A program made the position numbers and the translations under genes. DNA of 64,000 nt from Bacteroidota bacterium (lineage in GTDB: Bacteria > Bacteroidota > Bacteroidia > JABEUT01), in the NCBI GenBank assembly GCA_021823405.1, contig JAKAOA010000002.1:12434-76433 (forward strand), in the 5' to 3' direction. The notes below the pieces were generated by a model. The model saw nothing but the letters and a program-made list of their open reading frames with translations, had not been told where the DNA came from and searched no databases. Shown piece by piece: positions 15,162 to 63,517 of the stretch (its first letter is position 1; each line of letters starts with the position of its first letter).

Positions 15162-16301
15162 TTAAAGTGTTCCTCTGCGCGCTTGTTCTCTTTCGATGGA
15201 TTCGAAGAGCGCTTTAAAGTTACCGGCTCCAAACGACTTGGCGCCTTTACGCTGTATCACTTCATAGAATAGAGTAGGGCGGTCTTCTACAGGTTTCGTG
15301 AATATCTGAAGCAGATAGCCCTCTTCATCCCGGTCAACAAGGATTTTTAGACGCCTTAAATCTTCTATTTTTTCGTCAATCTTACCCACTCTGCTGTACA
15401 AATCCTCGTAATAGGTATCAGGGGTAGGCAGAAATTCCACGCCCCTGGCATTCAGTTCGGTTACTGTGGTAAGTATATCATTCGTTTCAAGAGCTATGTG
15501 CTGCACTCCGGCAGTGTGATAAAAGTCGAGGTACTCTTCAATCTGCGATTTCTTTTTGCCTTTGGCAGGTTCGTTTATAGGGAATTTAATGTAGCCGTTG
15601 CCGTTGCTTACCACTTTGCTCATAAGGGCGGAGTACTCGGTAGATATTTGTTTGTCGTCGAAGGTAAGAAGTAGTTTGAAGCCCATTACCTCTTCGTAAA
15701 ATTTAACCCATTTATTCATTTCGCCAAGCGGAACATTTCCAACGCAGTGATCTACATGTTTCAGCCCTACCGGTTTGATTTTAAAAAGGGAATTCGCCTT
15801 CTGGTATCCCGGAAGAAATTCGCCTTTGTAGTTTTTGCGTTCTACAAAGGTGTGTATGGTTTCTCCGTAAGTAAAGATGGAAGCGGTTTTAACTTCGCCG
15901 GATTCATCTCTCATCGTTTGAGGAAGAATAGCAGGTTTTGCGCCTCTTCTTACCGTTTCATTAAATGATTTCTCGGCATCATCAACCCATAATGCGAGAA
16001 CTTTAACCCCGTCACCATGTTTTTGAACATGTTCCGCCGCCGGATGCTTTGGGGTAAGTGCGGTGGTTAGCACAAGCCGAACTTTACCCTGTTTTAATAC
16101 GTAAGATGTCTTGTCCTTTACGCCTGTTTCCAATCCTGAATAGGCAACCAGCTCATATCCCCAAGCGGATTGGTAGTAATAGGCGGCTTGTTTTGCATTA
16201 CCTACATAAAATTCAATATAATCGGTGCCGTTGATAGGCAAAAAATCGGGACTGGCGTTTTTATGCAACTCCTTCAGTTTATTTTCTACTGCTGTTTCCA
16301 T
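15162..16301 (-). CDS. hppD: 4-hydroxyphenylpyruvate dioxygenase
   Basis: 379 aa. Two-module VOC fold with conserved HPPD C-terminal region (..FGAGNFKALFESIEREQARRG). Confidence 0.85.
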   Translation of the reverse strand: METAVENKLKELHKNASPDFLPINGTDYIEFYVGNAKQAAYYYQSAWGYELVAYSGLETGVKDKTSYVLKQGKVRLVLTTALTPKHPAAEHVQKHGDGVKVLALWVDDAEKSFNETVRRGAKPAILPQTMRDESGEVKTASIFTYGETIHTFVERKNYKGEFLPGYQKANSLFKIKPVGLKHVDHCVGNVPLGEMNKWVKFYEEVMGFKLLLTFDDKQISTEYSALMSKVVSNGNGYIKFPINEPAKGKKKSQIEEYLDFYHTAGVQHIALETNDILTTVTELNARGVEFLPTPDTYYEDLYSRVGKIDEKIEDLRRLKILVDRDEEGYLLQIFTKPVEDRPTLFYEVIQRKGAKSFGAGNFKALFESIEREQARRGTL

Positions 16302-16347
16302 ATCTTATTTTTTAATTTTAAAGGTTCAATCTTAATCCGTTCGTGGC

Positions 16348-50795: not shown

Positions 50796-50832
50796 TTATA
50801 AAACCGGAAAGCCGCTCGAAAGGCGGCTTTCT
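50796..50832. terminator. Intrinsic terminator between the convergent rpoC and wecB genes: stem GAAAGCCGC / GCGGCTTTC followed by TTTTATTT
   Basis: 9-bp inverted repeat with 7-nt loop and a T-run. Confidence 0.7.
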
Positions 50833-50861: not shown

Positions 50862-52022
50862 TCATGAACGGCGTGCGCCATCAAAGGTCTCAATGATTTG
50901 TTCGCAGATAAATTCCGAGGCGCTGCCATCGCCATATAGCAATGGGAACTGCAATTCTTTATTTCCGTTGAGGAAGTGGTCGGCTCCTTGGCAAATCTTA
51001 TTATAATCGGACCCAACCAGCAGAGCGTTTTTGCTTTCCACAAGTTCGGGCCAGGGCGTTTCATCGAGCATGATAAGACATGGTTTCCTTACAAAATACG
51101 CCTCTTTTTGAACGCCTCCCGAATCGGTAATCACCAGGTCGGCATATCTCTCGAATGCTATCATATCCAGGAATGACGCAGGCTCGGTAATCTGTATTCT
51201 TTTACTAGAGAGGATATTGTGCAGCGCTGGCATTTCGGACAACTTTTGTTTAGTGCGAGGGTGAAGCGGAAGAACTATATTCCTGCTGTGTTTTTCAGCT
51301 ATCGACGCAAGTGCCTTCAAAATGTTTTCAAGCGTTTCCGCCTTGTCCACATTGCTCGGGCGGTGCATGGTTGCCAATATATAACTGCTTCCGCTAATCT
51401 TATATTTCCGGAATACATCCGCCTTCTTAACTTTATTGAGAAAGAAAAGGGTATTATCATACATTATGTCGCCGCACCTGAACACTCTCGGATTGTCTGG
51501 AGTTACAGGATGTCCGGTTCTATTCTCCAGAATGAACCCTTCTTTCTGCAAAGAGCGCATTCCTGCATCGGACGGAACGAACAACAACGAAGAAAAGTGG
51601 TCGCAGATAAGCCGGTTCACCTCTTCGGGGTATATCTTGTTGTAGCTTCGCACCCCGGCTTCAACATGGATGATGGGGATGAACAGTTTTATTGCCACAA
51701 GACAGGCCGCCAGGGTGGAATTTGTGTCGCCGTAAAGGAGCATGGCATCGGGGTTCTCTTTCAGAACTACCTCCTCTATCGCAATCATCATATTAGCGGT
51801 TTGTGCGGCATGGCTCCCTGAACCGATACCGAGGTTATACTTTTCCTTCGGTATTTCCAGTTCTTCAAAAAATACTTTCGCCATATTTTCGTCATAGTGC
51901 TGCCCTGTATGAACGATGACTTCGCGGATATGTTTGCTGAAATGCTTACGGATAGCCCTGCTGATGGCGGCAGCTTTTATGAATTGGGGACGGGCTCCTA
52001 TTACCGTTACAAGTTTTATCAT
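50862..52022 (-). CDS. wecB: UDP-N-acetylglucosamine 2-epimerase (non-hydrolysing)
   Basis: N-terminus MIKLVTVIGARPQFIK and conserved epimerase core. Confidence 0.85.
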   Translation of the reverse strand: MIKLVTVIGARPQFIKAAAISRAIRKHFSKHIREVIVHTGQHYDENMAKVFFEELEIPKEKYNLGIGSGSHAAQTANMMIAIEEVVLKENPDAMLLYGDTNSTLAACLVAIKLFIPIIHVEAGVRSYNKIYPEEVNRLICDHFSSLLFVPSDAGMRSLQKEGFILENRTGHPVTPDNPRVFRCGDIMYDNTLFFLNKVKKADVFRKYKISGSSYILATMHRPSNVDKAETLENILKALASIAEKHSRNIVLPLHPRTKQKLSEMPALHNILSSKRIQITEPASFLDMIAFERYADLVITDSGGVQKEAYFVRKPCLIMLDETPWPELVESKNALLVGSDYNKICQGADHFLNGNKELQFPLLYGDGSASEFICEQIIETFDGARRS

Positions 52023-53350
52023 AATTCCGTTCTCTTTTCGGGGGTAAGCGTATCGAACAGCGCCGCCAGTTGTTTAGTCAGTTCGGACGCCGAATATTGC
52101 TCAACATTTACCGACCGGATAGTATTCCTGCCTTCAAGGTAGAGTTGGTATAACATCTTCACCGTACTTTTCATTTTTTCCTTGTCGCCAAAATTACAAC
52201 AATAACCTGCATGGCAATTCTGAATAACATAAGCCGCATCGCCTTTTTCGGGACCTATAAGCAGGATAGGTCGCTGCGCTTTCAGGTAATCGAACAACTT
52301 TCCCGTCAGTACAAATTCGCTGTTAGGTATCCTGTCGATGGGGAGCAACAGCGCCTGCGCCGAACACAGGTGCGCAATGGTTTCGCGGTAAGGTATAAAA
52401 TCTATTTTCTTCAAATTGGCGCCCAGCTTATAACGTTCTATGGAAGCCAATACATCGGATGCTACGCTGCCTATCAGTTTTATCTCCAGACGGGCGGCGA
52501 AGTTGCTATCCTTCTTTACCATTTCCGCAAGGGTTTCCCACAAATCGTCACAGTTGCGGTTATTCTTAAAGCTGCCGACGTGAACGACGGTGAATTTCTT
52601 ATCGGGCGGATAGATCTCGGATAGGGGCGCAGCCGACTTGAATCCTTCGGTTTCGTTATAGCTGTTGTATATTACTGCCGAATCGCGGTTGTACCTGTCC
52701 TTGAATTCGTTATACATGGTGCGCCCGACAACCGTAACCGCGCTTGCGTTTTCAATCACCATACGTTCCAGCCGTTCGTGTTTACGCTTAGCCCATGGCG
52801 AAAGAAACATCTCGCCAAGGTAATCCATTGTAGTCCAGGGGTCTCTAAAATCGGCTACCCATGGAATGTGTAAATCTTTGCTCAACCGTTGCGCTATAAG
52901 GTGCATGGAATGCGGCGGGCCGGACGAAAAGATTAAATCTACCTTTCGGGCGGATAAAACCTTTTTAAGATATCGCACCGATGGCTTTACCCATAGTGCA
53001 CGGGCGTCCGGTATGAAGAAGTTGCCGCGGATGAACCACAGAATTTTAGTCACGAGCCGTTTTTTGCCTTCCAGGTTATCGAGTACCTTACCGTTTTGCG
53101 GCTTGCCCGACTTTACCGCCCGCGGGAAAAAATTGTTGGGCTCATATATTTTATATTTTATCGTTTCAATGCCTTCAGGTATTTCACGGATAAGGGCTTC
53201 GTCGTACAAGGCATAGTTCGGGTTATCCGCCGTATATACCATCGGTTCCCAGCCGTAGTTGCGCAGATACTTAACGAATCGAAGGCAGCGCTGCACGCTT
53301 GTTCCGCCGGCGGGAGGCCAGTAATATGTTATAATCAGGACTTTTTTCAT
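52019..53350 (-). CDS. Family 4 glycosyltransferase. The start is chosen at the ATG 53350 (MKKVLIITYYWPP); the track start is a TTG at 53374.
   Basis: GT4-like N-terminus and C-terminal GT1 domain. Stop/start overlap with wecB. Confidence 0.7.
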   Translation of the reverse strand: MKKVLIITYYWPPAGGTSVQRCLRFVKYLRNYGWEPMVYTADNPNYALYDEALIREIPEGIETIKYKIYEPNNFFPRAVKSGKPQNGKVLDNLEGKKRLVTKILWFIRGNFFIPDARALWVKPSVRYLKKVLSARKVDLIFSSGPPHSMHLIAQRLSKDLHIPWVADFRDPWTTMDYLGEMFLSPWAKRKHERLERMVIENASAVTVVGRTMYNEFKDRYNRDSAVIYNSYNETEGFKSAAPLSEIYPPDKKFTVVHVGSFKNNRNCDDLWETLAEMVKKDSNFAARLEIKLIGSVASDVLASIERYKLGANLKKIDFIPYRETIAHLCSAQALLLPIDRIPNSEFVLTGKLFDYLKAQRPILLIGPEKGDAAYVIQNCHAGYCCNFGDKEKMKSTVKMLYQLYLEGRNTIRSVNVEQYSASELTKQLAALFDTLTPEKRTEL

Positions 53351-53454
53351 GAACGGCATGTAAAAGTAGGACAAATCCGGGAATGCCAGATATGGAAAAA
53401 GTCAGGCAATTTTCGATTTTACTGGCAGATATTTTAATTAAGCCGCGTATCTTT

Positions 53455-53550
53455 GGGTATACACTTTTGGGGGTATTTTTTAGTTAAAAACTTGATATAC
53501 AGTATGTTAATGGTATACACAGGGTATACATTTGTATACCATTAGTATAC
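53455..53550. repeat. GGTATACC-box repeat, copy B: the 42-bp block shared with 24950-24992 plus four or five GTATAC-containing boxes in both orientations
   Basis: GGGTATACACTTTTGGGGGTATTTTTTAGTTAAAAACTTGAT is shared with copy A. GGTATACCATTAGTATACCC is the reverse complement of GGGTATACTAATGGATACC in copy A. Confidence 0.55.
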
Positions 53551-53551
53551 C

Positions 53552-54310
53552 CTATCGGGCTGTATCCTCTGCCGTCGCGAGCAAAATCTGTTCAATTTTC
53601 TTTAGCTGGTCGGGTCTTAATTTCTTTATCTCTTCCTGGCTCAAGCGCGTTTGATTAATCTGTATGTAGTTGTGTTGGTTTTCTACGTAATTTTTACTTG
53701 AACTACTCCCTGAATTTATGGCACCGGTTGCTTCAAGGAATAGTTTTATGGCTTTCATGTCGCCTCCCGATGCTTCACGGTATAATATGGCAAGTATTTT
53801 CCCGCTTACCAGTTTATAACGGTCCTTTTGTTCCAAATAGTTGGGATTATGTTCGTATTCCTTTAAATGTTTGTAAAGGGTTCTTCTGCTTACCCCCGTC
53901 ATCTCAAGCAGGTCCGATTTCCTTGGCATAATGCCGTGTTTGGCAATATACTTATTTATCGCCTGAACTATATTGGCATGGTTTGTTTCCCAAATATCGT
54001 CCTGGAAGCCGGCGTGCAGAACGGGAGCAACCCTTTCCAGAAATTCTTCCTGTTCCTCTCCTTTCAGTCGGTTTGCGTCACGGTTTATTTTATTAATTAA
54101 ATAATCCTTCTCTTCGTCGTTCAGTTGCAGGAAGTCCTTCCTTGTTATCTTTTCCTGCTCGTATAGGGCGTCTGCTTTCGCGAATAGGGCGGGACAGATG
54201 TCCTTTACCGGAGGATTGACGGTTGCAGGCTCGGAGGCATTGGAGCCGGGCGCGGCTGTTTTACCTGATACGGTTTGAATTTGTTGGCTGATGGCTTGAT
54301 TTGTTTCCAT
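53552..54310 (-). CDS. Hypothetical HTH-containing protein at the boundary of the accessory island
   Basis: Predicted HTH segment ...DLLEMTGVSRRTLYKHLKEY. Confidence 0.45.
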   Translation of the reverse strand: METNQAISQQIQTVSGKTAAPGSNASEPATVNPPVKDICPALFAKADALYEQEKITRKDFLQLNDEEKDYLINKINRDANRLKGEEQEEFLERVAPVLHAGFQDDIWETNHANIVQAINKYIAKHGIMPRKSDLLEMTGVSRRTLYKHLKEYEHNPNYLEQKDRYKLVSGKILAILYREASGGDMKAIKLFLEATGAINSGSSSSKNYVENQHNYIQINQTRLSQEEIKKLRPDQLKKIEQILLATAEDTAR

Positions 54311-54463
54311 GATGGTATGATTTTAAATGTTAATGATGACGCAAATATATACATTTAATGGCACATAATATATAATATGTTTATTTATTGAAAAAAGTAT
54401 TAAACAAATCCAATCATCTTTGGAAGATAGATTAGCAACGATAGGGTTGACTTACCCAACAAA

Positions 54464-54485
54464 AAAGCCCTATTTACAGGGCTTT
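54464..54485 (-). terminator. Intrinsic terminator hairpin AAAGCCCT-ATTTAC-AGGGCTTT (T-run on the minus strand). Copy 1 of a triplicated secA-terminator-like hairpin.
   Basis: The 38-bp block 54452-54489 is identical to 56768-56805. Confidence 0.6.
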
Positions 54486-54751
54486 AGTGTTACAGCGTAC
54501 CGGAAAAGTTCTTCAAAAGTTTCAAACTTTTCCTTCGGTTCCTTATGATGCTCCGGTAGTATTGATTTTGAAAAATGTTTTTCCCTGCCTTCTTTTCCTG
54601 AATAAATCTTTTTCTCAATGTTTGAAGCCCATACATAGCCGTGGTTACCAATCACAGTGCAAGAATAGTTTTCCCAGCTAAATAATCTTTCTATTTGGGT
54701 CTCACTAAATCCAAAATGAATTAATCTTTCATTTGTTAAGTCTTCAATCAT
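54470..54751 (-). CDS. Hypothetical small protein (93 aa), last gene of the cassette array. The C-terminus is encoded by the terminator hairpin.
   Basis: ORF only. No motif recognised. Confidence 0.3.
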   Translation of the reverse strand: MIEDLTNERLIHFGFSETQIERLFSWENYSCTVIGNHGYVWASNIEKKIYSGKEGREKHFSKSILPEHHKEPKEKFETFEELFRYAVTLKPCK

Positions 54752-54766
54752 TTAATATGTCTAACG

Positions 54767-55228
54767 TCATTGCTTTTTAATTGGTTTACCATTAGTATCA
54801 ACATCAATAGCATCATTACTATCGTCAATAAATGAGGTATAGAAATCCACCACCATATTATTTTCAAAACTAACTTCAAGAACATATTTATATTTTCCCG
54901 CCTCGCTAAAAGCATAATACGGGGCAAGAAAGTAATCAAATGTATAGTTCCCGCCATTGTGAATTATTTTATTGGGTTCTCCGAGAAATGCAAATATTTC
55001 TTTATTCGTATATTGTTTAATATTTATCCCATTAACCGATACTATTTTCCTTGTTATTGTGTCCTCTATCAAAGCACTGTCTCTGAAAAGGTTCTTTCCC
55101 AATGAATCAGCTTTCCACCTCGAAGAAAAATCACCATTGGTCATATTTTTAAAACCACCAATTAGATGAGGTTGCCCAAAAGCCACAACCGAAATGAAAG
55201 AGAACAATATGAGAAAAGCAGGCTTCAT
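54767..55228 (-). CDS. Secreted hypothetical protein (153 aa) sharing the signal peptide MKPAFLILFSFISVVAFGQ with the neighbouring MORN genes
   Basis: The first 55 nt of the CDS are identical to 55836-55890. Confidence 0.5.
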   Translation of the reverse strand: MKPAFLILFSFISVVAFGQPHLIGGFKNMTNGDFSSRWKADSLGKNLFRDSALIEDTITRKIVSVNGINIKQYTNKEIFAFLGEPNKIIHNGGNYTFDYFLAPYYAFSEAGKYKYVLEVSFENNMVVDFYTSFIDDSNDAIDVDTNGKPIKKQ

Positions 55229-55890
55229 TTTATTTCATTGCCGTTTTCATCGTAATTTTTTTGTTCCTGTAGAGTATCATTCCTGAAAAGTTTTTCACTC
55301 TTTAATTTTCCGTTTTCAAAGTACTCTTTTTCAACCCCATCTTTTTTGCTGTTCACTACTGGACTTTCTATTTTTAAATTACCATTTTCGTAATAACCCT
55401 TCTCAATTCCATTCTCTTCACCGTTCGCCCAGTGTCCTTCTACTTCCAGATTCCCATTTTCGTAATATCCTTTTAATGTTCCATTCCTTTTACCTTTTAA
55501 ATATTGTCTTTCATATTCTATTTTGCCGCTTTCATAGTATTGCCTTTCTGTGCCGGTTTCTTTTCCATTTTCATCGTAAGGAACCTCCAGGAATAATTTT
55601 CCTGTGAATTCGTCGTAAATTCTTCCTATTCCGCTCAATTTACCATTGTGGTAATTGCAAAGCATATAATATGGTGAATTGGTATCCTTTGAAATTTCTC
55701 CCCAATTATTTAGGTATTCCATCCATTCCCCTTCTTTTCTAAAAAGTTTTCGTTTGTTCTTAGCTTCAGCTTTAAATCTTGCTTCCCTGATTCTCCCGCT
55801 GTCATGGGGTTCTATCAGAGTTTTCAGAACTTCCTGCCCAAAAGCCACAACCGAAATGAAAGAGAACAATATGAGAAAAGCAGGCTTCAT
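55225..55890 (-). CDS. Secreted MORN-variant repeat protein (YwqK-family immunity-like)
   Basis: Repeats GEWMEY.., NGKLSGIGRIYDEF, SGKIEYERQYLKGKRNGTLKGYYENGNLEVEGHWANGEENGIEKGYYENGNLK. Start codon overlaps the upstream stop. Confidence 0.65.
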   Translation of the reverse strand: MKPAFLILFSFISVVAFGQEVLKTLIEPHDSGRIREARFKAEAKNKRKLFRKEGEWMEYLNNWGEISKDTNSPYYMLCNYHNGKLSGIGRIYDEFTGKLFLEVPYDENGKETGTERQYYESGKIEYERQYLKGKRNGTLKGYYENGNLEVEGHWANGEENGIEKGYYENGNLKIESPVVNSKKDGVEKEYFENGKLKSEKLFRNDTLQEQKNYDENGNEIK

Positions 55891-56549
55891 TTTATTCGAT
55901 TACCGTCCTTATATTCTACAACTCCTATTTTTTCTCCACGTTCATTATACCAAACATGCTCTCCTTCTAGCTTATCGTTCATAAATCTACCTTGACTTTC
56001 AATGTTACCATTTTTAAAATACCAAGTCCACATTCCAGTCTTTAAGCCCATTTTATACTCTCCTTCAATTTTTTTCCAACCATCAAATGATCTCCAAATA
56101 AAATTACCATTAAGTGAATCATCTTTAAGAGTACCATACCTAGTCTCTTCCTTTTGATAATCATATTCTTCAATCAAACCATTACGTTTCCCATCATGCC
56201 ATATTGAGAGTCGTATAAGTCTTCCTACGCTATCCCATTCTTTCCACTCACCTTCCTTATTATTGTTCTCATAAGAACCTTCTGACTGCTTCACCCCATT
56301 TGGATACCAGTTGCTCCATTTACCAATTAATGCCCCATTTTTAAAACAACCAACCGATTGAATTTTATTGTTAGAAAAATAGTAAGTCCATAAGCTGTCT
56401 TCTTTATTCAGTTTAAACCTGCCGATGCCTTTTAAATTATTTTTTAGGTATATTGTATCATTCTTTTTTTCAACGCCCAATGAATCCTGCTGCTGCCCAA
56501 AAGCCAAAAGCGAAATGAAAGAAAATAATATTAGTAAAGCAGGCTTCAT
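55887..56549 (-). CDS. Secreted MORN-variant repeat protein (YwqK-family immunity-like), paralog
   Basis: Signal peptide MKPALLILFSFISLLAFGQ. Repeats GEWKEWDSVGRL, NGLIEEYDY, KTGMWTWYFKNGNIESQGRF. Confidence 0.65.
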   Translation of the reverse strand: MKPALLILFSFISLLAFGQQQDSLGVEKKNDTIYLKNNLKGIGRFKLNKEDSLWTYYFSNNKIQSVGCFKNGALIGKWSNWYPNGVKQSEGSYENNNKEGEWKEWDSVGRLIRLSIWHDGKRNGLIEEYDYQKEETRYGTLKDDSLNGNFIWRSFDGWKKIEGEYKMGLKTGMWTWYFKNGNIESQGRFMNDKLEGEHVWYNERGEKIGVVEYKDGNRIK

Positions 56550-56551
56550 TT

Positions 56552-56697
56552 TATTTCATTGCCGTTTTCATCGTAATTCTTTGTTGCCCGCTTTCATTGA
56601 CGGTTTCAATTGTCTGAAACGGCAATGCAATACGAATAGGCGTAACCTTTTTGCCGTCTTTATACTTCCCTTCCCAAATAAGTTCGGTCATGATTAA
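56552..56697 (-). pseudogene. Short ORF / 3' remnant of a further cassette gene. The 28-bp TTATTTCATTGCCGTTTTCATCGTAATT at its end is identical to the 3' end of the 55225-55890 gene but is read in another frame.
   Basis: Nucleotide identity of 56551-56578 with 55229-55256. Confidence 0.35.
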
Positions 56698-56779
56698 TTA
56701 TATCTGTGTTGAATTTACGGCGGGGAAATTAGTGAAAAAAGCATTTTCAATGTGTGCTTTGCAAAATTTACCCAACAAA

Positions 56780-56801
56780 AAAGCCCTATTTACAGGGCTT
56801 T
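56780..56801 (-). terminator. Intrinsic terminator hairpin AAAGCCCT-ATTTAC-AGGGCTTT, copy 2. Probably the original secA terminator displaced by the insertion.
   Basis: Identical to copy 1. About 75 percent similar over roughly 90 bp to the secA-proximal region 63428-63520. Confidence 0.6.
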
Positions 56802-56843
56802 AGTGCAGTTCAGTATAAAATCAGTATATCTTTAGTTTGCGGC

Positions 56844-56860
56844 AGTTACTTACCGTGGCA
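56844..56860. repeat. attL core: 17-bp copy of the secA 3' terminus (reverse complement encodes NCHGK-stop)
   Basis: Identical to 63501-63517. Confidence 0.7.
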
Positions 56861-56910
56861 AAAACTATTTATACCTAATTCTATTGGATTGTAGCGTTTT
56901 GAGGTACAAA

Positions 56911-56932
56911 TAGGGTACAAAATAACTCAAAA
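56911..56932. repeat. Two GGTACAAA arm-type direct repeats (GAGGTACAAATAGGGTACAAAA), left arm
   Basis: The 22-bp string is identical to 63359-63380. Confidence 0.65.
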
Positions 56933-57089
56933 ATATCATTGGGAAAATGTTGCATAGAGTATTTCATTAGTTTGAAATTCAATTTGCTTTGAAATATTTA
57001 CCTTTTGAGAATCCGTGTTTTCTTTTGGTATTAATTTTCCCATTATCTTACCAAAAGACCTAATGGCTGATGGGGATGAATAATTCTTT

Positions 57090-57494
57090 TCAACCACTTG
57101 TAATAGTAAAAAGTTGTTTGTCTTTTTCATAAGCATATATTTTTTCAGCTATAATTAAGTAAACTATTACTTTCCAAATGCTTTCAAAATCTGAAAGTTT
57201 AAGATGTTTTTCCCTTTTTAATTGTATAAATTTTTGATAATCAGTTTCCCTAATATAATTTAATATACCGATGGTGTTGTCTATATTATTGTTAGTGAAA
57301 TATACCGCATACGCTGTTTTACCTGTACCCTTATCACCAATAATAAAATACGTAGATTGTTTCTTTATTTTATATAAAAATTCATTCTCTATAAATATTT
57401 TATTGAATATCTCTCTATTTTCTTTTTTTTTGTAATTCTCAGCATCATTAAATCCGAGATACAATTTTCCAATTGGAATTTTTTGCTTTTCCAT
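57090..57494 (-). CDS. P-loop NTPase (Walker A GDKGTGKT). Apparently disrupted: the reading continues in the +1 frame as ORF 56936-57136.
   Basis: Walker A motif. The overlapping out-of-frame ORF shares sequence through a homopolymer-rich segment at 57095-57130. Confidence 0.45.
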   Translation of the reverse strand: MEKQKIPIGKLYLGFNDAENYKKKENREIFNKIFIENEFLYKIKKQSTYFIIGDKGTGKTAYAVYFTNNNIDNTIGILNYIRETDYQKFIQLKREKHLKLSDFESIWKVIVYLIIAEKIYAYEKDKQLFTITSG

Positions 57495-57496
57495 AT

Positions 57497-58399
57497 TTAA
57501 TAAAATTTGATTTTATTCTGAATCAAATAAGGTTCTATCCTGTTTTTAGCGAGTTTTACATAGTCAGGACTAATATCGTAACCGACAAAATTTCTTTCAG
57601 ATTTTAGTGCAGAAATAGCAGTCGTCCCACTACCCATAAAAATATCAAGAATATTATCTCCTTTCAATGAATATAGCTGTATAAGACGATAAGGTAATTC
57701 TTCAGGAAACGGTGCAGGGTGTCCAATTTTCCTTGCACTTTCCGTATTCATGCTCCATATTGATTTTGTCCATTCCATGAATTGCTCTTTGGTAATAGTA
57801 TCCTTCTTCCCATTGGCTTTTCTTTGATAATCGCCTTTTGAAAATACTAAAATATATTCGTGTGTATCTCTTAATACCGGATTAGTAGCACTTTTCCAAC
57901 TACCCCAAGCCATTGAAACACCTGCACCTGCACCTTTAACCCAAATTATTTCGCCCCTCATTTTAAAGCCAATATCATTCATCATTTTAGATATATGGTC
58001 TGAAAGTGGAATATATGGTTTGCGTCCAAGATTGGCGACATTAATACATACTCTTCCCCCATTGACTAAAACCCTGAAAGTTTCAGTAAAAGAATTTTTA
58101 AGCAGGGTTAAATATTCTTGCAAAGTCAAATTATTGTCATATTCTTTTGTAACGTTATAAGGAGGTGAGGTAATCATTAAATGAATAGAATTGTCGGGTA
58201 ACTCTTTCATGTTTTCCGCCGTTCCTAAAATAAATGTATTTAAGTATTCTTTTGGAACTGAATTTTCGTTTGTGTTAATTTTCTTTTCTCCATTTATTAC
58301 AGAATACAGTTTAGAATTGTAAAACTTAGAGCTATCATGGTTTATACGTCCCCCTGTTCCGAATGAACTGGTCTTTGTGCCTGCTATTCTTGTTCCCAT
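57497..58399 (-). CDS. DNA methyltransferase, beta-class amino-MTase (motif IV SPPY precedes the C-terminal FxGxG), likely N4-cytosine specific
   Basis: MITSPPYNV catalytic motif. C-terminal DIFMGSGTT SAM-binding motif. Confidence 0.75.
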   Translation of the reverse strand: MGTRIAGTKTSSFGTGGRINHDSSKFYNSKLYSVINGEKKINTNENSVPKEYLNTFILGTAENMKELPDNSIHLMITSPPYNVTKEYDNNLTLQEYLTLLKNSFTETFRVLVNGGRVCINVANLGRKPYIPLSDHISKMMNDIGFKMRGEIIWVKGAGAGVSMAWGSWKSATNPVLRDTHEYILVFSKGDYQRKANGKKDTITKEQFMEWTKSIWSMNTESARKIGHPAPFPEELPYRLIQLYSLKGDNILDIFMGSGTTAISALKSERNFVGYDISPDYVKLAKNRIEPYLIQNKIKFY

Positions 58400-59031
58400 A
58401 ATTCAATCCATCTTTTGAAAGGTTTATATTCAATAGCTTCTTTATGCCAATTAATTGCAATTTTTAATGTTTCAGGTTGCGACAATAAATATTTCATTGC
58501 TTTTCCGGTCATTTCCACACCACGAGGGTTTGTCCCTTCCTTTGGTAATTTTATGTATTCCTTACGTCCTATTGTTTCAAGAGCTTTAATTTGCGTTTCT
58601 TTTGGAATGTAATAAAACCCGCCGCCGTTACTCCAGTTAATTTGAATAAAAATCATGTCGCATCCAGGATTATATTTTGCGCTAAACTCCTTTGCTTTTG
58701 CAGCATCAACAGTCCAAACCAACTTTACTCCATTTACCGCTCCTGTAATTGTCTTTATTGAAATAGGGCAACCAAATACCTTAACGTCCATTTCTGTTTC
58801 GGTGGTTGGTATTTCAGTTTCAACATTTGTAGTACCAAATTTATATAAAAGAAATGCAACTATTATCCTTTCTCTAATTGTTCCAACTTCCATTCCAATT
58901 TTACCAGCTCTTGAACTTTCAAGTTCGGCAATATGAAATAATTTTGGAAGTGTATTTTGAATTTTTAATATGGTCTCTTTTTCTTTAAAAATACCTTGAA
59001 TATTTGCCTTCATCGTGTAAATATTTTTCAC
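58384..59031 (-). CDS. Candidate type II restriction endonuclease partner of the methyltransferase (uncharacterised, 215 aa)
   Basis: 16-bp overlap with the MTase start. Possible (D/E)xK segment EMDVK. No other recognisable domain. Confidence 0.4.
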   Translation of the reverse strand: MKNIYTMKANIQGIFKEKETILKIQNTLPKLFHIAELESSRAGKIGMEVGTIRERIIVAFLLYKFGTTNVETEIPTTETEMDVKVFGCPISIKTITGAVNGVKLVWTVDAAKAKEFSAKYNPGCDMIFIQINWSNGGGFYYIPKETQIKALETIGRKEYIKLPKEGTNPRGVEMTGKAMKYLLSQPETLKIAINWHKEAIEYKPFKRWIELWEQE

Positions 59032-59289
59032 AAAGTAAGCAAAATTTATCCAAAATAATTTCTTTCTGTTAATAAATATACCTATGAACTAAGCATTAAC
59101 CCGCCCCCCTTCATAATATTGCACATTTTCCAAACGTAAATCTGCCGCCAAATGAAAATAATAATTCTTTTTCCCGAAAATAGAAGGTGCAATAATATCC
59201 TCCGATTATTCCACCCCGCCCTTATCAAAAAAATACCCTGCCCCGCCCTGTACGGTTTGGGTAGTAATTCTTTTTCACAAGGTCTTTGA

Positions 59290-60357
59290 TTAATTTAAAA
59301 CCGTGTCAATACAGTTTTCTAACAGGGATTCCAGTTCCGGCGGCTTTGAAAAGCCAATAAGCGGAAAATCTAAGTCATCATTAATATAGTCGCCCGTTTT
59401 CGGGTCTAAGTGCCATATTTTATAATCCCCTACAGGTGTGAATGTTACTTTTTTGGGCTGTTCAGGTAGAGTAAAACCAAAACCTTCAAAAACGTGCTTT
59501 TTATCCAGTGCTTTTAAAATATTATAAAGTGCGTGGGCGTATATTGTAGGGGCTGCCATTCCTTGCAATTTTTTATCATTATCCGGCTCGGTGAATATTT
59601 TTCCGCAATACTTAATTAATTCAATTAACGCTCCTTGCATATTCCATACTGGCTTTACCTTTTGTGCTCCTGGGTTTGCATATTTCAAAGTCCATAGTTT
59701 ACACCATTCCTTTTTAAGAGTGTCGCCTATTTCCTTATTCTTAACTATGATATGGAAATGTGGGTTGTAAGTATGCTTTTCAGGGTTAAATCCACACTCT
59801 AACGTCCTTATCCCTATTAACTTTTTACATTTTCCTTTTTTATAACCTCTGTCATATTTGTCAATGATTACAGCAATAGCCCGACACATACCGTCAATAT
59901 ATTTTTTTAAGTTTTTGACTTTTTGCGCTTTTACTGTTAGTGTTACAAAATAAGCGTTTCCCCATTCGTTTTGAAAATAGGGATAGTATCGGTTCAATAA
60001 GTCAGCTTTGCGGTTACCGCAACATAACGGACAAAATCGCAGCTTACAATATTTCCCGTGTAGCTTTCCCCCAGTTGTATAGATTTTACCTAAACAATGG
60101 TAAGCGTTCCAACACTGTTTAATGAAATCATAATCCCTGTATTCTTTTGCCACGTCAATAAGTTTTAGCACTAAGGCGTTACTAATCATTCTCCTTTTAG
60201 CCAACTTTTGTAACCCTGTATTGTCGGCAATATCTTTTCCTTTCCCCTTAACTATTATTACAGGGTTTCGGGAAGGTTTGACATATAGAGGTGTACGGTG
60301 AACTGCTAATGTATAGATTTCCTTCCCCAAAGGGTTTCGTTTTCGCTCTATTCTCAC
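59290..60357 (-). CDS. rep: Rolling-circle replication initiator / HUH endonuclease with a Cys-rich zinc-finger-like segment
   Basis: Three RCR motifs in order: FVTLTV, HTYNPHFHIIV (HUH) and LIELIKYCGK (YxxK). Cys cluster CKLRFCPLCC. Confidence 0.7.
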   Translation of the reverse strand: MRIERKRNPLGKEIYTLAVHRTPLYVKPSRNPVIIVKGKGKDIADNTGLQKLAKRRMISNALVLKLIDVAKEYRDYDFIKQCWNAYHCLGKIYTTGGKLHGKYCKLRFCPLCCGNRKADLLNRYYPYFQNEWGNAYFVTLTVKAQKVKNLKKYIDGMCRAIAVIIDKYDRGYKKGKCKKLIGIRTLECGFNPEKHTYNPHFHIIVKNKEIGDTLKKEWCKLWTLKYANPGAQKVKPVWNMQGALIELIKYCGKIFTEPDNDKKLQGMAAPTIYAHALYNILKALDKKHVFEGFGFTLPEQPKKVTFTPVGDYKIWHLDPKTGDYINDDLDFPLIGFSKPPELESLLENCIDTVLN

Positions 60358-60359
60358 AG

Positions 60360-60692
60360 CTACCTTCTTTTACCCTTTACATAGTCCTTTGCTTCGGCGG
60401 CTATTTCTGTAACCGTTTTTTTACGCCCAGCCTTTATATATTCCATCAAATCTTGCCTTGAGAAATACAATCGGTGGGAACGCTTACATACTGGGATTTC
60501 AGCTTTGTGTACTTTGGTGTACAGGGTAGCTTTAGAAAGTTTTAGAAACTCTGCGGCCTGCTCAATGGTTAAAAGCTCATCGGCTTCGGGCTGAGGCTCA
60601 CCACTCCTTTCAAGTAATAACCGCTTTATCTCACTTACTTCATTAGTAAGCTGGGTAACGGCTTGGGGTAAATTTTCAAATGTGATTTCCAT
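60360..60692 (-). CDS. Excisionase-family helix-turn-helix DNA-binding protein (xis-like)
   Basis: HTH LTIEQAAEFLKLSKATLYTKVHKAEIP typical of Bacteroidetes mobile-element excisionase/HTH-17 proteins. Adjacent to int and rep. Confidence 0.65.
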   Translation of the reverse strand: MEITFENLPQAVTQLTNEVSEIKRLLLERSGEPQPEADELLTIEQAAEFLKLSKATLYTKVHKAEIPVCKRSHRLYFSRQDLMEYIKAGRKKTVTEIAAEAKDYVKGKRR

Positions 60693-60765
60693 TGTACTAT
60701 CAGTTTTAAATTTGATAGTGCAACAGTATAGGGGGCTTTTAGGGGCAACAATAGGGGCGTACGCC

Positions 60766-62184
60766 CTATTTTAGTTTTTGGTAGTCGTTTTGTACCGTTT
60801 CTTTATGCAGGTGTGCCGTATAGCGTTCCTTATTTTCCGTAGTGTTTTTAAGCAATGAACTGATATTACCCTTTACTGCCCTGCCATCTTTATCAGAGTT
60901 AAGCCACTTGCCAATTTCCTTGTTCAGTTTATATTTTGTCTGCAAATGGTTTTTCTCTAAATGCTTTAAAAAGCCCAAATAATCAAACATTGCTATACAG
61001 TAAGGTAGTTCATTTGAGCTTATCAATTCTACCAACTTTTCTTTATTTTCTGCCGTTAATTGCTTGACCATTGGTAAATCAAAGAAGCCATATTTACCAA
61101 ATACAATCTTTAATTTATCCGCTTTCGTTTCTGTTTGCTTGGGCGGTGCGGGTTTTAATATGGGAATAAGTTCATCAATAAACCTTTTTTCATCAGCATA
61201 CCATTTCTTTAACATTTTCCTGTATCGGTGTTCCTCATTGGGTGAACTATTTTTATACCCTTGTTGAAGTTCCAATTTCCTATTGTTTATTATGAGTTCC
61301 AGTTTGATTTTATTTGCATCCGTAATAAGCCCCTTTTCGTATAATTTCAACCCGTTTATCTGCGTTAAAAGATTATCAGTTAAGCTTATTAATGCTTCAA
61401 ATAGGCTGCCTTTTGTATGCAGCTTTGCTTTTGCAAATCCACTATACTTGTTTACCTCTGGCACACTGTTCAATATAGGTAATTGATTTTCAAAATGCTG
61501 TTTAAGGGGGCTGAAAAAGCTTAATTCAAAGGGGAATATCCTAAGCCAGTCCTGATAAACCTTGTATAAAACATTCAAATCAGTTGATGTTGCAGTCGGT
61601 TCTGAAATATCTATTCTATGTGGTAGCTCGCTTTGAAATAGCGTCTTTGAAGGCTGATTGGCCTCTGTTACGGTTTCTTCTGTGATAGAGTACTTGTCAA
61701 TAAATTCAGTCAATTTTTTCACTTTAGACAATTCACCCTGAGTTAAGTCGCCTTTGGGCTTTTTAATAAGCTTTTTTACTTTATCTAAATACAAGTGCAG
61801 CCCTACGGCTGGCTGCCCAAAACTTGTAACATTATACTCAATATAGTCCGTTATTTCTTTATACCAATTAGGTGAATCTATCTGTTTAGAAATATGGTAT
61901 TCAGTATATGAAAGCTGCTTAATAATCTTGTCAGCAATACCATTATAGTTATCTTTCAGAAACCACCACTTACCATCGTATTCTTTATGTATTGCGCAGC
62001 AATTTGGGAATTTCTCAAACCATTTTACTGCCTCATCATAAACGCCTTTATGAAACGGACAGCAATTAGGTAACTGCTCTTTTGTTTCGGGATTGGCGGG
62101 GGGTTCATAACCTGCGGGAGGCTTTACCTCAAATGCTTGAATAAAAAAGTTTGCAGCATCAATTTCAACAAAGGGTTTGTCCAT
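60766..62184 (-). CDS. Hypothetical 472-aa element protein with Cys/His cluster CCPFHKG...CCAIHKEY
   Basis: ORF between int and xis. No recognised domain. Confidence 0.4.
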   Translation of the reverse strand: MDKPFVEIDAANFFIQAFEVKPPAGYEPPANPETKEQLPNCCPFHKGVYDEAVKWFEKFPNCCAIHKEYDGKWWFLKDNYNGIADKIIKQLSYTEYHISKQIDSPNWYKEITDYIEYNVTSFGQPAVGLHLYLDKVKKLIKKPKGDLTQGELSKVKKLTEFIDKYSITEETVTEANQPSKTLFQSELPHRIDISEPTATSTDLNVLYKVYQDWLRIFPFELSFFSPLKQHFENQLPILNSVPEVNKYSGFAKAKLHTKGSLFEALISLTDNLLTQINGLKLYEKGLITDANKIKLELIINNRKLELQQGYKNSSPNEEHRYRKMLKKWYADEKRFIDELIPILKPAPPKQTETKADKLKIVFGKYGFFDLPMVKQLTAENKEKLVELISSNELPYCIAMFDYLGFLKHLEKNHLQTKYKLNKEIGKWLNSDKDGRAVKGNISSLLKNTTENKERYTAHLHKETVQNDYQKLK

Positions 62185-62195
62185 TGCAATGTTCT

Positions 62196-63311
62196 TTACA
62201 AGTCCAGTTTTATTTTATCAGCCGCTTCCCGTTTCGTTTGGTCAATAATCTTAGCGTAAATCATAGTTGTTTTTAGTTCACGGTGTCCCAGTAATTTTGA
62301 TACCGTAAATATATCAGTTCCCTTACTAAGCTGTAATGTTGCGTAGGTGTGCCTAAAGCTATGAAAGGTTATATTTTTTGTAATGCCCGCTTTAAGTACC
62401 CAGCGTTTTAAATGAAAATTCATAAATGCAGAGTATTGTAGCCCCTCAAAAACGCTTTCATCAGGTAGCCCAGGTTTGCCCAATATATTATACGCCTGTT
62501 CTGAAATTGGTAATACCTCAACCCCCTTTGTTTTCTTTTGCCTGAAACGCAAATAATAACCTTCGGCCTTGCTATGCTGTACCTCTGCCCAAGTAAGCTT
62601 TTGAATATCTGAAAATCTTAACCCTGTAAGCGAAGCAAATAAGGCGGCCTGTTTAAGTAATGGTAAACTACATTCGGTTTTTGCCAAAGTGTTCAATTCT
62701 TCCATTGTAAGAAACTGTCTTTCAGTTTCAGCCTCCTTTATTCTTTCGACTTTTGCACTAATATCAGATTTTATCCGCCCGTCTTTGTAGGCTTGCTTTA
62801 AAGCCGCTTTTAATTTGTTAAAGTATGAAAAGGCCGTATTCTGCGATATAGGTAGCTTACTTCTTATTCGTGGTTCTTTTAGAAGGTATGCTTTGAAGTC
62901 ATTGCAGAATTTCGGGGTAATGTCTGTAAACCGTATAGTACCCCCGCTAAATTCTTTTAAGTAATGCAGGGCGCAAAGCCATATTTCACGGTTTCGCTGG
63001 TTATGTTTATCAGCTAATTCTTTAAAGTAGTCAACAAAATTAGCGTTAAGGTCATTCGTAGAAAGAAACCCATACTGACCGTTTTGAATTTCAATTTGTC
63101 GGGTTGCCCGTATATTTTCTGCAAGGGCTTTTGTATCTATGTTATGCTGTTTGTCAAAGGGTGTCTTTGGCTTATCATACAAATGAAGCCCTAAAAACTC
63201 CCTTCGTGTAAGTTCTCCCGTGTCAGGATGAGTTATAGGTGGGTAGAAATCTAAATACAGGCTTTTACGGTTGCCTGAAATGTCTTTTGTTCTTAGTTTA
63301 ACTTTTGTCAT
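62196..63311 (-). CDS. int: Tyrosine site-specific integrase (phage-integrase family)
   Basis: C-terminal catalytic region HSFRHTYATLQLSKGTDIFTVSKLLGHRELKTTMIYAKI (H-x-x-R ... Y). Confidence 0.9.
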   Translation of the reverse strand: MTKVKLRTKDISGNRKSLYLDFYPPITHPDTGELTRREFLGLHLYDKPKTPFDKQHNIDTKALAENIRATRQIEIQNGQYGFLSTNDLNANFVDYFKELADKHNQRNREIWLCALHYLKEFSGGTIRFTDITPKFCNDFKAYLLKEPRIRSKLPISQNTAFSYFNKLKAALKQAYKDGRIKSDISAKVERIKEAETERQFLTMEELNTLAKTECSLPLLKQAALFASLTGLRFSDIQKLTWAEVQHSKAEGYYLRFRQKKTKGVEVLPISEQAYNILGKPGLPDESVFEGLQYSAFMNFHLKRWVLKAGITKNITFHSFRHTYATLQLSKGTDIFTVSKLLGHRELKTTMIYAKIIDQTKREAADKIKLDL

Positions 63312-63329
63312 GGCTTAAAGTGTTATTGA

Positions 63330-63379
63330 GGTACAAACGAGGTACAAAAAATAATTATGAGGTACAAATAGGGTACAAA
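63330..63379. repeat. Four GGTACAAA arm-type direct repeats immediately upstream of int (right arm)
   Basis: GGTACAAA at 63330, 63341, 63361 and 63372. Confidence 0.65.
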
Positions 63380-63435
63380 AGTAAACAAAATAAGCAACTA
63401 TTGGAACAAAACAGGTATTAAATATGAGCAATAAA

Positions 63436-63458
63436 AAAGCCCTCTATTAAAGGGCTTT
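63436..63458 (-). terminator. Intrinsic terminator of secA (stem AAAGCCCT / AGGGCTTT, loop CTATTAA, then TTTTTTAT on the minus strand). Copy 3, the variant hairpin.
   Basis: Located 45-70 bp downstream of the secA stop. Confidence 0.65.
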
Positions 63459-63500
63459 ATTGGGGTTTACTATAAAATTAGTATAAAACTACTTTGTGTT

Positions 63501-63517
63501 AGTTACTTACCGTGGCA
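63501..63517. repeat. attR core: 17-bp direct repeat overlapping the secA stop codon
   Basis: Identical to 56844-56860. Confidence 0.7.

Follow-up and report, generated by a model that had tools for sequence, protein, structure and literature searches.

Repeated hairpins, an integrative element, and the probable remains of an older one lie next to the 3′ end of secA in a Bacteroidota bacterium, within a 64-kb stretch of contig JAKAOA010000002.1 (assembly GCA_021823405.1, positions 12,434–76,433 of the forward strand), which we call the window and number from its first letter. The secA gene runs on the minus strand from 63991 to 63503, all genes between 50.9 and 64 kb share this strand, and the features described below are on it unless noted otherwise. 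Hairpins of the form AAAGCCCT-loop-AGGGCTTT occur three times in the 64 kb when a loop of N5–8 is allowed (N6/7 was observed), at 54464–85 (copy 1), 56780–801 (copy 2), and 63436–58 (copy 3), and 0 matches are expected in the shuffled window. Copies 1 and 2 are perfect 8-6-8 palindromes within a longer repeat; the 38-bp blocks at 54452–54489 and 56768–56805 are identical at 38 of 38 positions, including the loop and the non-stem flanks, and their edges lie 4 nt before and 12 nt after the palindrome. No third copy of the block was found in the window with up to three mismatches allowed. The three hairpins and the exact duplicate had been pointed out in the initial annotation, and both hold. Each copy scores as a minus-strand intrinsic terminator (folding at −13 to −17 kcal/mol), and the three appear to be positioned to terminate, respectively, a unit of MORN genes, the operon of an element that we call E2, and secA; Rfam gave 0 matches in the window. 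The GC content is low over ~53.5–63.5 kb, where values of 26–40% in E2, 33–37% in the MORN region, and 40–42% in an HTH gene compare with 45–50% in chromosomal genes.

The surroundings of copies 2 and 3 are also related. Positions 56777–56860 and 63434–63517 share 75% identity across 84 nt, in agreement with the earlier estimate of about 75%, and both stretches end in an exact 17-nt core, AGTTACTTACCGTGGCA, which contains the secA CHGK codons and stop (56844–60 and 63501–17). No third core was found in the window with up to three mismatches allowed, and the two known cores flank E2 (56861–63517), whose 6,657 bp equal the distance between the core repeats. The secA-proximal core of E2 (63501–63517, equal to 56844–56860) comprises the last four codons of secA, the stop, and 2 nt more, and it is followed by what would be the integration arm (P arm, 63436–63500), made up of a 44-nt spacer (63459–63502) and hairpin copy 3. 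Beyond the hairpin lie four predicted arm-type integrase sites of the form RGGTACAAA on the plus strand (63329–63379; GGTACAAA in the direction of transcription), 11 nt apart within pairs, and then a tyrosine integrase of 371 aa (62196–63311; PF13102 and PF00589). The rest of E2 (56861–62195) encodes, in the direction of secA, a 472-aa post-integrase product (p472), an HTH_17 protein, Rep_1, a ThaI endonuclease, an N6/N4 methylase, and a 134-aa protein (p134). Two distal arm sites follow at 56902–56921, and arm sites are thus present at both ends of E2. The second core (56844–56860) forms the distal junction of E2 and would also be the start of an older element's arm. The last E2 gene, p134 (57090–57494), matches positions 1–104 of a 454-position model for Sll1717-family P-loop ATPases; it matches the start of the model only and is therefore a truncated cargo gene. 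The ThaI-type restriction-modification pair at 57497–59031 is further cargo.

The E2 integrase is 54–75% identical to those of more than 80 loci. A metagenome scan queried with an alignment of three integrases returned >418 relatives, from which 80 loci were kept; scans of viral contigs using the integrase and using the hairpin gave no match, and we found no published description of this Bacteroidota integrase family. When aligned, the arms of the family read from the end of mnmE (..FCIGK*) or, at L020 and L021, of secA (..CHGK*) through a spacer, AAAGCCCT-loop-AGGGCTTT, ~60 nt, and TTGTACC sites to the integrase, with conserved TTGTACC pairs present in all of them. The distance from stop to hairpin is 43–44 nt in 17/17 arms and 44 nt at window copies 2 and 3. 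Most members are inserted in the last codons of mnmE (L005, L009, L038, L039, L047, L075, L077, L082, L089/90, L096, and L097), and those that target secA (in the window, L020, and L021) have in common a target ending in ..GK* TAAC. A full element would run from its core through a 43–44-nt spacer, the hairpin, ~60 nt, the TTGTACC sites, and an excisionase-like gene in some members to the integrase, and would continue with the post-integrase gene, HTH_17, a replication gene, cargo, distal arm sites, and a second core. Many members encode a primase in place of Rep_1. Upstream of the core, 5–6 of 18 arms carry another element's distal arm and not a target gene, and we recognized tandem arrays at L074, L049, L041, L022/L030, L029, and probably L062. 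At L074, L049, and L041 the arm has an element on either side and target genes are far away, so that arm and hairpin must move as part of the element. With its integrase homology, a core repeat over the last codons of its target, and arm architecture at both ends, E2 is, judged by its sequence, an intact integrative element of this secA/mnmE-targeting family. In distal arms of the family (for example L049, ~740–790, and L074, 3440–3470) the core is flanked by the inverted repeat AGTTACTTT-N9-AAAGTAAC, whose halves are probably the half-sites at which the integrase binds the core, one on each side of the overlap region; in attB, whether it lies in mnmE or secA, the right half-site alone is good.

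Terminators with an A-tract, a GC stem, and a U-tract converge in form, and the hairpins could in principle owe their likeness to chance or to a terminator repeat dispersed through the genome. The exact 22-mer of copies 1 and 2 does occur at unrelated loci in Mesobacillus and Sediminibacterium. In ~185,000 species genomes scanned, however, it was present in 8 genomes at one copy each, whereas the window's three hairpins all lie in the secA island, and an identity of 38/38 that extends through loop and non-stem flanks is not expected by chance (0 expected). Two of the 22-mer carriers (L005, Draconibacterium; L009, Agriterribacter) have integrases 54–60% identical to that of E2 beside the hairpin at the mnmE 3′ end. 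A repeat of this kind could also arise by metagenome misassembly, against which stands the recurrence of the same arrangement on three long contigs of the same species, with 3 mismatches in 20 kb relative to the window. An independent Logan contig stops exactly 30 nt (k−1) into the block, which is the break to be expected if two different flanks lead into a shared 38-mer. Exact-protein look-ups with the integrase, the product of a 93-codon open reading frame (ORF) called p93, the 220-aa MORN protein, and the HTH gene product retrieved this same arrangement and no other. On these comparisons, which within the source genome covered the window only, we regard chance, dispersal, and misassembly taken together as very unlikely explanations. 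At L010, the hairpin lies 1.2 kb from a gene for a large MORN protein in an unrelated chromosomal context, which we judged to be coincidental.

The initial annotation had taken copy 3 to be the functional secA terminator and had supposed that, of the two regions bordering E2, one was chromosomal and one was brought by the element's attP. We addressed this with a profile of the family arm, built from 20 arms of other loci only, with the window excluded. The profile matched copy 3 over a full arm with arm sites (63355–63517, E=1e-26), copy 2 over core, spacer, hairpin, and ~12 nt (56763–56869, model positions 8–114 only, E=5e-15), and copy 1 over the hairpin block only (54453–54488, E=3e-6). The region of copy 2 is 75% identical both to the E2 arm and to the arm of an unrelated locus, L039. 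Native secA terminators look different. L021 carries a complete element at secA (SecA C terminus 66% and integrase 70% identical to those in the window), with core identity limited, on the secA side, to CTGTCACGGAAA; beyond the other end of that element, the displaced native sequence reads CTGTCACGGAAAATAA, 20 nt, AAAAAGCCCCGCAATACTGCGGGGCTTTTT, and then a small lipoprotein gene. L017, with a SecA 72% identical, has an unoccupied secA site, where TAATAATTGATTTTGTTAAAT is followed by AAAAAGGCCCCGAAGTATTTCGGGGCCTTTTT, homologous to the native sequence of L021. In both relatives the native terminator is unlike the element arm and is located 20 nt past the stop. Copy 2 matches the family arm and not these native terminators, so the sequence at the far end of E2 is not chromosomal; from these alignments we read it as an arm left by an earlier member of the family, which we call E1. 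By the same comparison, the present secA terminator (copy 3) is supplied by E2, and none of the three hairpins appears to be native. Copy 3 is thus terminator-like and correctly placed, as proposed, while its native origin was not borne out, and the copy presumed to be chromosomal is itself element-derived, with the family arm profile and the 44-nt spacer. An element integrating here would displace its target's own terminator and supply its portable hairpin instead. In L021, the native secA terminator (15723–15755) and the terminator of the next gene, which encodes a 161-aa lipoprotein (16313–16345), are 82% identical over 33 nt; similar terminators can therefore bracket one small gene in an element-free stretch of a relative.

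What lies beyond the E1 arm looks like wreckage. The arm (56768–56843, including the block 56768–56805) consists of the 44-nt spacer, hairpin copy 2 (56780–56801), and 12 nt more (TTTGTTGGGTAA), and family homology ends abruptly at 56767/56768. No GGTACAA arm sites were found in 53.4–56.8 kb, no integrase or relaxase domain in 53552–56691, and no integrase between the two 38-bp blocks, in line with the earlier statement that the MORN array lacks an integrase of its own. The first ORF after the arm (56551–56691, 46 codons) joins 38 N-terminal codons of an unidentified gene to the out-of-frame last ~33 nt of a cassette of the 221-aa MORN type (56550–56582 corresponds to the 3′ end of the 221-aa gene, in the 89-nt repeat family D1, plus D4 and D7), and it is therefore a gene fragment. 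Its 46-aa product had no match in plasmids, PDB, Pfam, or NCBIfam; its N terminus may resemble some DNA methyltransferases. Next come three cassettes for secreted proteins (54767–56549): a 220-aa and a 221-aa MORN_2 protein and a 153-aa protein. An 89-nt repeat at 56494–582, 55835–923, and 55173–261 (83–92% identical) takes in the final ~33 nt of one gene and ~56 nt at the start of the gene that follows, where it encodes the signal peptide MKPAFLILFSFISVVAFGQ common to the two MORN_2 proteins and the 153-aa protein. To judge by these repeats, the MORN genes look like a cassette array that grows or shrinks via recombination at shared 5′ ends.

The cassettes are followed by p93 (54470–54751), which ties this region to the integrase family. 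A profile-free search of 1.8 billion proteins returned 70 homologues, nearly all of 243–700 aa and matching residues 1–88 only; they read ..FE(E/D)LF.YAV|LVGSIERP.. where p93 reads ..FEELFRYAV|TLKPCK*, and the break coincides with the edge of the 38-bp block. The last 6 codons of p93 and its stop come from the hairpin block. The C-terminal parts of the homologues match the gene directly after the integrase in L033–35, L058, L062, L076, L083, L087, and L091, and p93 is therefore a family backbone gene of which codons 1–87 remain, up to the cut at 54489/54490. We considered whether p93 continues in the 12 nt that follow the hairpin (F-V-G vs L-V-G) and rejected this, as tblastn with full-length homologues gave no match beyond 54485. 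L062 and the left element of L074 are one element type (82–90% nucleotide identity), with a hairpin, AAAGCCCTGTAAATAAGGGCTTT, that is one indel away from copies 1 and 2, followed by an excisionase-like gene, the integrase, the p93-family post-integrase gene, HTH_17, a 375-aa protein, and a primase. The window's order of copy 2, p93, and a 252-aa HTH gene is the order and orientation of the L062/L074 type. Read in this way, the MORN region is the wreck of the older family member E1 and not a unit with ends of its own, and the remnant would extend over about 53440/54452–56860. The proposal of an older insertion at the secA site thus stands as far as an older integrase-less element is concerned (arm profile E=5e-15, 44-nt spacer, truncated backbone gene).

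It does not stand as regards copy 1 (54452–54489, hairpin at 54464–54485), which had been proposed as the end of that insertion. No spacer, core, or arm sites accompany copy 1, which is terminator-like, matches the profile by its hairpin only, and abuts a gene cut at codon 87; we rejected it as an attachment (att) site. The string described as a degenerate core, GTTACAGCGTACCGG (54489–54503), is present as reported and is coding sequence of the truncated p93, and its supposed relation to the core did not hold: when the flank 54490–54589 was compared with the spacer/core and secA flanks, 543/2000 and 1974/2000 shuffles scored at least as well. Two other candidates were tried and rejected: AAGAACT..CGGTA..TAAC, a look-alike of the secA end found by eye, lies inside conserved coding sequence and gave no alignment signal, and GGGTAAGTCAAC at the copy 1 junction, similar to the core GGTAAGTAAC, fits no product of core-by-core recombination. 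These results bear on the possibility that the MORN array (54490–56767) is an integrase-less satellite bounded by att-like 38-bp repeats, comparable to a cis-mobilizable element (CIME), and mobilized by the neighboring integrase. Perfect 38-bp direct repeats around a 2,278-bp low-GC integrase-free segment would suit such a satellite, and elements of this sort are an accepted concept in other families (PMC5704250, section 2.3). However, the integrase crossover identity is the 17-nt core and not the hairpin: the loops of the E2 attL and attR hairpins differ, and identity between these sites is limited to the core. Core, spacer, and arm sites are all missing at the distal repeat, the segment's ends are a gene cut at codon 87 and a gene fragment, and the core-like string is not significant. 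A satellite is accordingly very improbable, the 38-bp block does not qualify as a crossover site, and mobilization in trans has no basis in the sequence because only two cores exist, both of which flank E2.

The feature of copy 1 that most needs explaining is where it stops. Both 38-bp copies end at the same integrase-side nucleotide, after TTTGTTGGGTAA, and are unrelated beyond it. Two independent deletions would not share an end-point, which makes it probable that truncation of the arm came first and duplication of the block second. We suggest that copy 1 may be a templated insertion or duplication at the junction of the deletion that removed the center of E1, and thus a duplicate of part of the E1 arm. 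An alternative that takes at face value the exact boundaries of both copies, 4 nt ahead of the perfect 8-6-8 palindrome and 12 nt past it, is that the block is a signal delimiting a 2,316-bp unit, with the MORN unit captured or moved by hairpin-directed recombination; examples would be an 8-6-8 pseudo-site recognized by a tyrosine recombinase or a signal at which a rolling-circle Rep stops or nicks. E2 does encode Rep_1, and the shared end-point would otherwise go unexplained. Yet the stems are unlike the family core half-sites GTTACTTT/AAAGTAAC, the sequence 12 nt past the hairpin is unconserved in Rep_1-bearing relatives (E2 copy 3 and L009), many members have a primase and not Rep_1, and no second example of a hairpin-bounded unit was found in 100 loci. 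That the block functions as a recombination or replication-termination signal, and that the 2,316-bp MORN unit is a cassette captured, duplicated, or released through it, is in our estimate even less probable than a satellite; if true, a hairpin-bounded cassette would give small integrative elements a new means of gaining and rearranging cargo.

On the far side of copy 1 lies the gene for the 252-aa HTH protein (phBC6A51-type, 53552–54310), probably the distal gene of E1. Only ~10 homologues were found, some of them named "DNA-binding phage protein." In L074, a homologue of its C terminus stands directly before the distal arm sites and core of the L062/L074-type element. Overlapping the 3′ end of the HTH gene is a cluster of five GGTATAC/GTATACC sites (53456–53551, not assigned to a strand), four of which (53512, 53523, 53534, and 53545; two direct and two inverted) have an exact 11-nt spacing, the same as that of the GGTACAA pairs of E2. 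No similar cluster was found in ~100 fetched loci. This GGTATAC cluster may represent the distal arm of E1, with arm-type sites for an integrase since lost; alternatively, it could be an operator to which the HTH protein binds. From the arrangement at the single locus L074 we infer that the HTH gene and these repeats both come from E1. Beyond the repeats are genes for a glycosyltransferase and a UDP-GlcNAc 2-epimerase, and then rpoC.

These pieces could also derive from three accreted elements, E0, E1, and E2, with copy 1 the arm hairpin of E0, the HTH gene and GGTATAC sites also from E0, and copy 2, the MORN region, and p93 from E1. Tandem arrays are frequent in the family (5–6/18 arms), the observed junction would follow from a single deletion that began at p93 codon 88 and reached the end of the spacer in the next element, and the GC content of 53.5–54.5 kb (40–42%) differs from that of the MORN region (33–37%). 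This history nevertheless requires that the hairpin blocks of two elements be identical at 38/38 positions, yet the arms of different members differ; it requires two independent deletions from the same nucleotide, 12 nt past each hairpin; and the pieces keep the order of one element of the L062/L074 type. We consider three elements unlikely, though worth keeping in mind, and a single older element enough as the most economical history.

We favor, with a probability of about 0.62, a secA 3′-end hotspot at which E1 integrated, E2 accreted in tandem, and E1 decayed. What we observed directly are the repeats, the anatomy of the family arms, the truncated genes, and the absence of a third core and of further arm sites; the order of events is our reconstruction. 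First, E1, a family member of the L062/L074 type, would have integrated at secA. E2 would then have integrated into the secA-proximal core of E1, leaving the E1 core, spacer, and copy 2 at the far end of E2. During the decay of E1, its arm sites and integrase would have been lost, with ~2.0 kb of MORN-type cassettes and a gene fragment in their place, and a further loss would have run from codon 88 of the post-integrase gene to, probably, the promoter of the distal HTH gene, with copy 1 at the junction.

Several points weigh against this history. One element with deletions leaves the shared end-point of the 38-bp copies unexplained, and a duplication step has to be assumed. We found no intact E1-type element with this exact 38-bp block. 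Homologues of the 252-aa HTH protein also occur alone in chromosomal contexts (L099, L100), and a relative is present in one family locus only, L074. Neither a distal core nor a native secA terminator was recognizable near 53.4 kb by core search or arm profile, and the far boundary of E1 is therefore undefined; a candidate there, CTGCCAGTAAAAT, was too weak to count. On the Flavipsychrobacter chromosome (L008, 2078–2130), an exact match to the 22-nt hairpin shared by copies 1 and 2 lies after secA, with a native-type spacing of 24 nt that starts with TAATAATT as in L017 and L021, and no integrase within 6 kb. This may be a coincidence or an ancestral capture, and such a hairpin could then be chromosomal; it hints that the family may first have captured its arm hairpin from a secA terminator. 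Finally, in the nearest relative by the glycosyltransferase gene, L012, secA is not adjacent to that gene, nor was it near it in L012–L015. The comparison of secA-downstream regions called for earlier accordingly yielded an unoccupied site (L017) and a single complete element (L021), and no true empty site from a close relative, secA not being near the glycosyltransferase in L012.

Integration, decay, and accretion form a three-step route described for other families (PMC5704250, section 2.3), and the window structure is a further example of an ordinary tandem accretion and decay island. It resembles the tandems of CIMEs with integrative mobilizable elements (IMEs) or integrative conjugative elements (ICEs), on the ICESt1-type model (PMC5704250, section 2.3), in its tandem accretion, the decay of the resident, and the composite island that results. 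A CIME by definition keeps attL and attR; the window remnant likewise has no integrase or relaxase, but it retains only the gene-proximal arm, with no distal core detectable. It differs further from CIME-type tandems in that its family comes from Bacteroidota and has an arm with a replacement terminator at a fixed 44-nt distance, and in that its internal 38-bp duplicate does not qualify as an att site. SGI1 and its relatives in Gammaproteobacteria insert at the trmE/mnmE 3′ end (PMC8409611, PMC7449626), and most members of the window family likewise lie in the last codons of mnmE; both kinds of element are small, carry an integrase, and can sit in tandem. This likeness is one of target and layout; the SGI1 islands belong to another phylum, whereas the window element targets secA and its family has replication genes (Rep_1 or primase) in place of mobilization genes, of which none were recognized. 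NBU-type integrative mobilizable elements of Bacteroides have a tyrosine integrase and insert in the 3′ ends of tRNA genes (PMC5704250). The window family resembles them in its small size, its Bacteroidota hosts, its tyrosine integrase, and an attP by which the 3′ end of the target is restored; in contrast to NBU elements, it has protein-coding targets and no relaxase or oriT that we could identify.

Current models of site-specific accretion and decay are unchallenged by this island, which illustrates that repeated terminator-like hairpins after a housekeeping gene can mark successive integrations by terminator-carrying elements. The integrase family, with its >418 metagenomic relatives, fixed 44-nt spacer, conserved hairpin, and frequent tandem arrangement, may merit description and cataloguing. 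In annotation, the ORFs of 93, 46, and 134 codons should be flagged as gene fragments and the secA terminator as element-derived.

Two minor observations concern the region beyond the island. The glycosyltransferase-epimerase pair (52019–53374) is not beside secA in L012 and L013, where it adjoins either a RelB-like gene and purE or a YfhO-family gene; the adjacency of the island to this pair may reflect rearrangement or deletion at the island's far end. Farther out, a bidirectional terminator-like hairpin of 11 pairs (50806–50832) lies between the convergent rpoC and epimerase genes.

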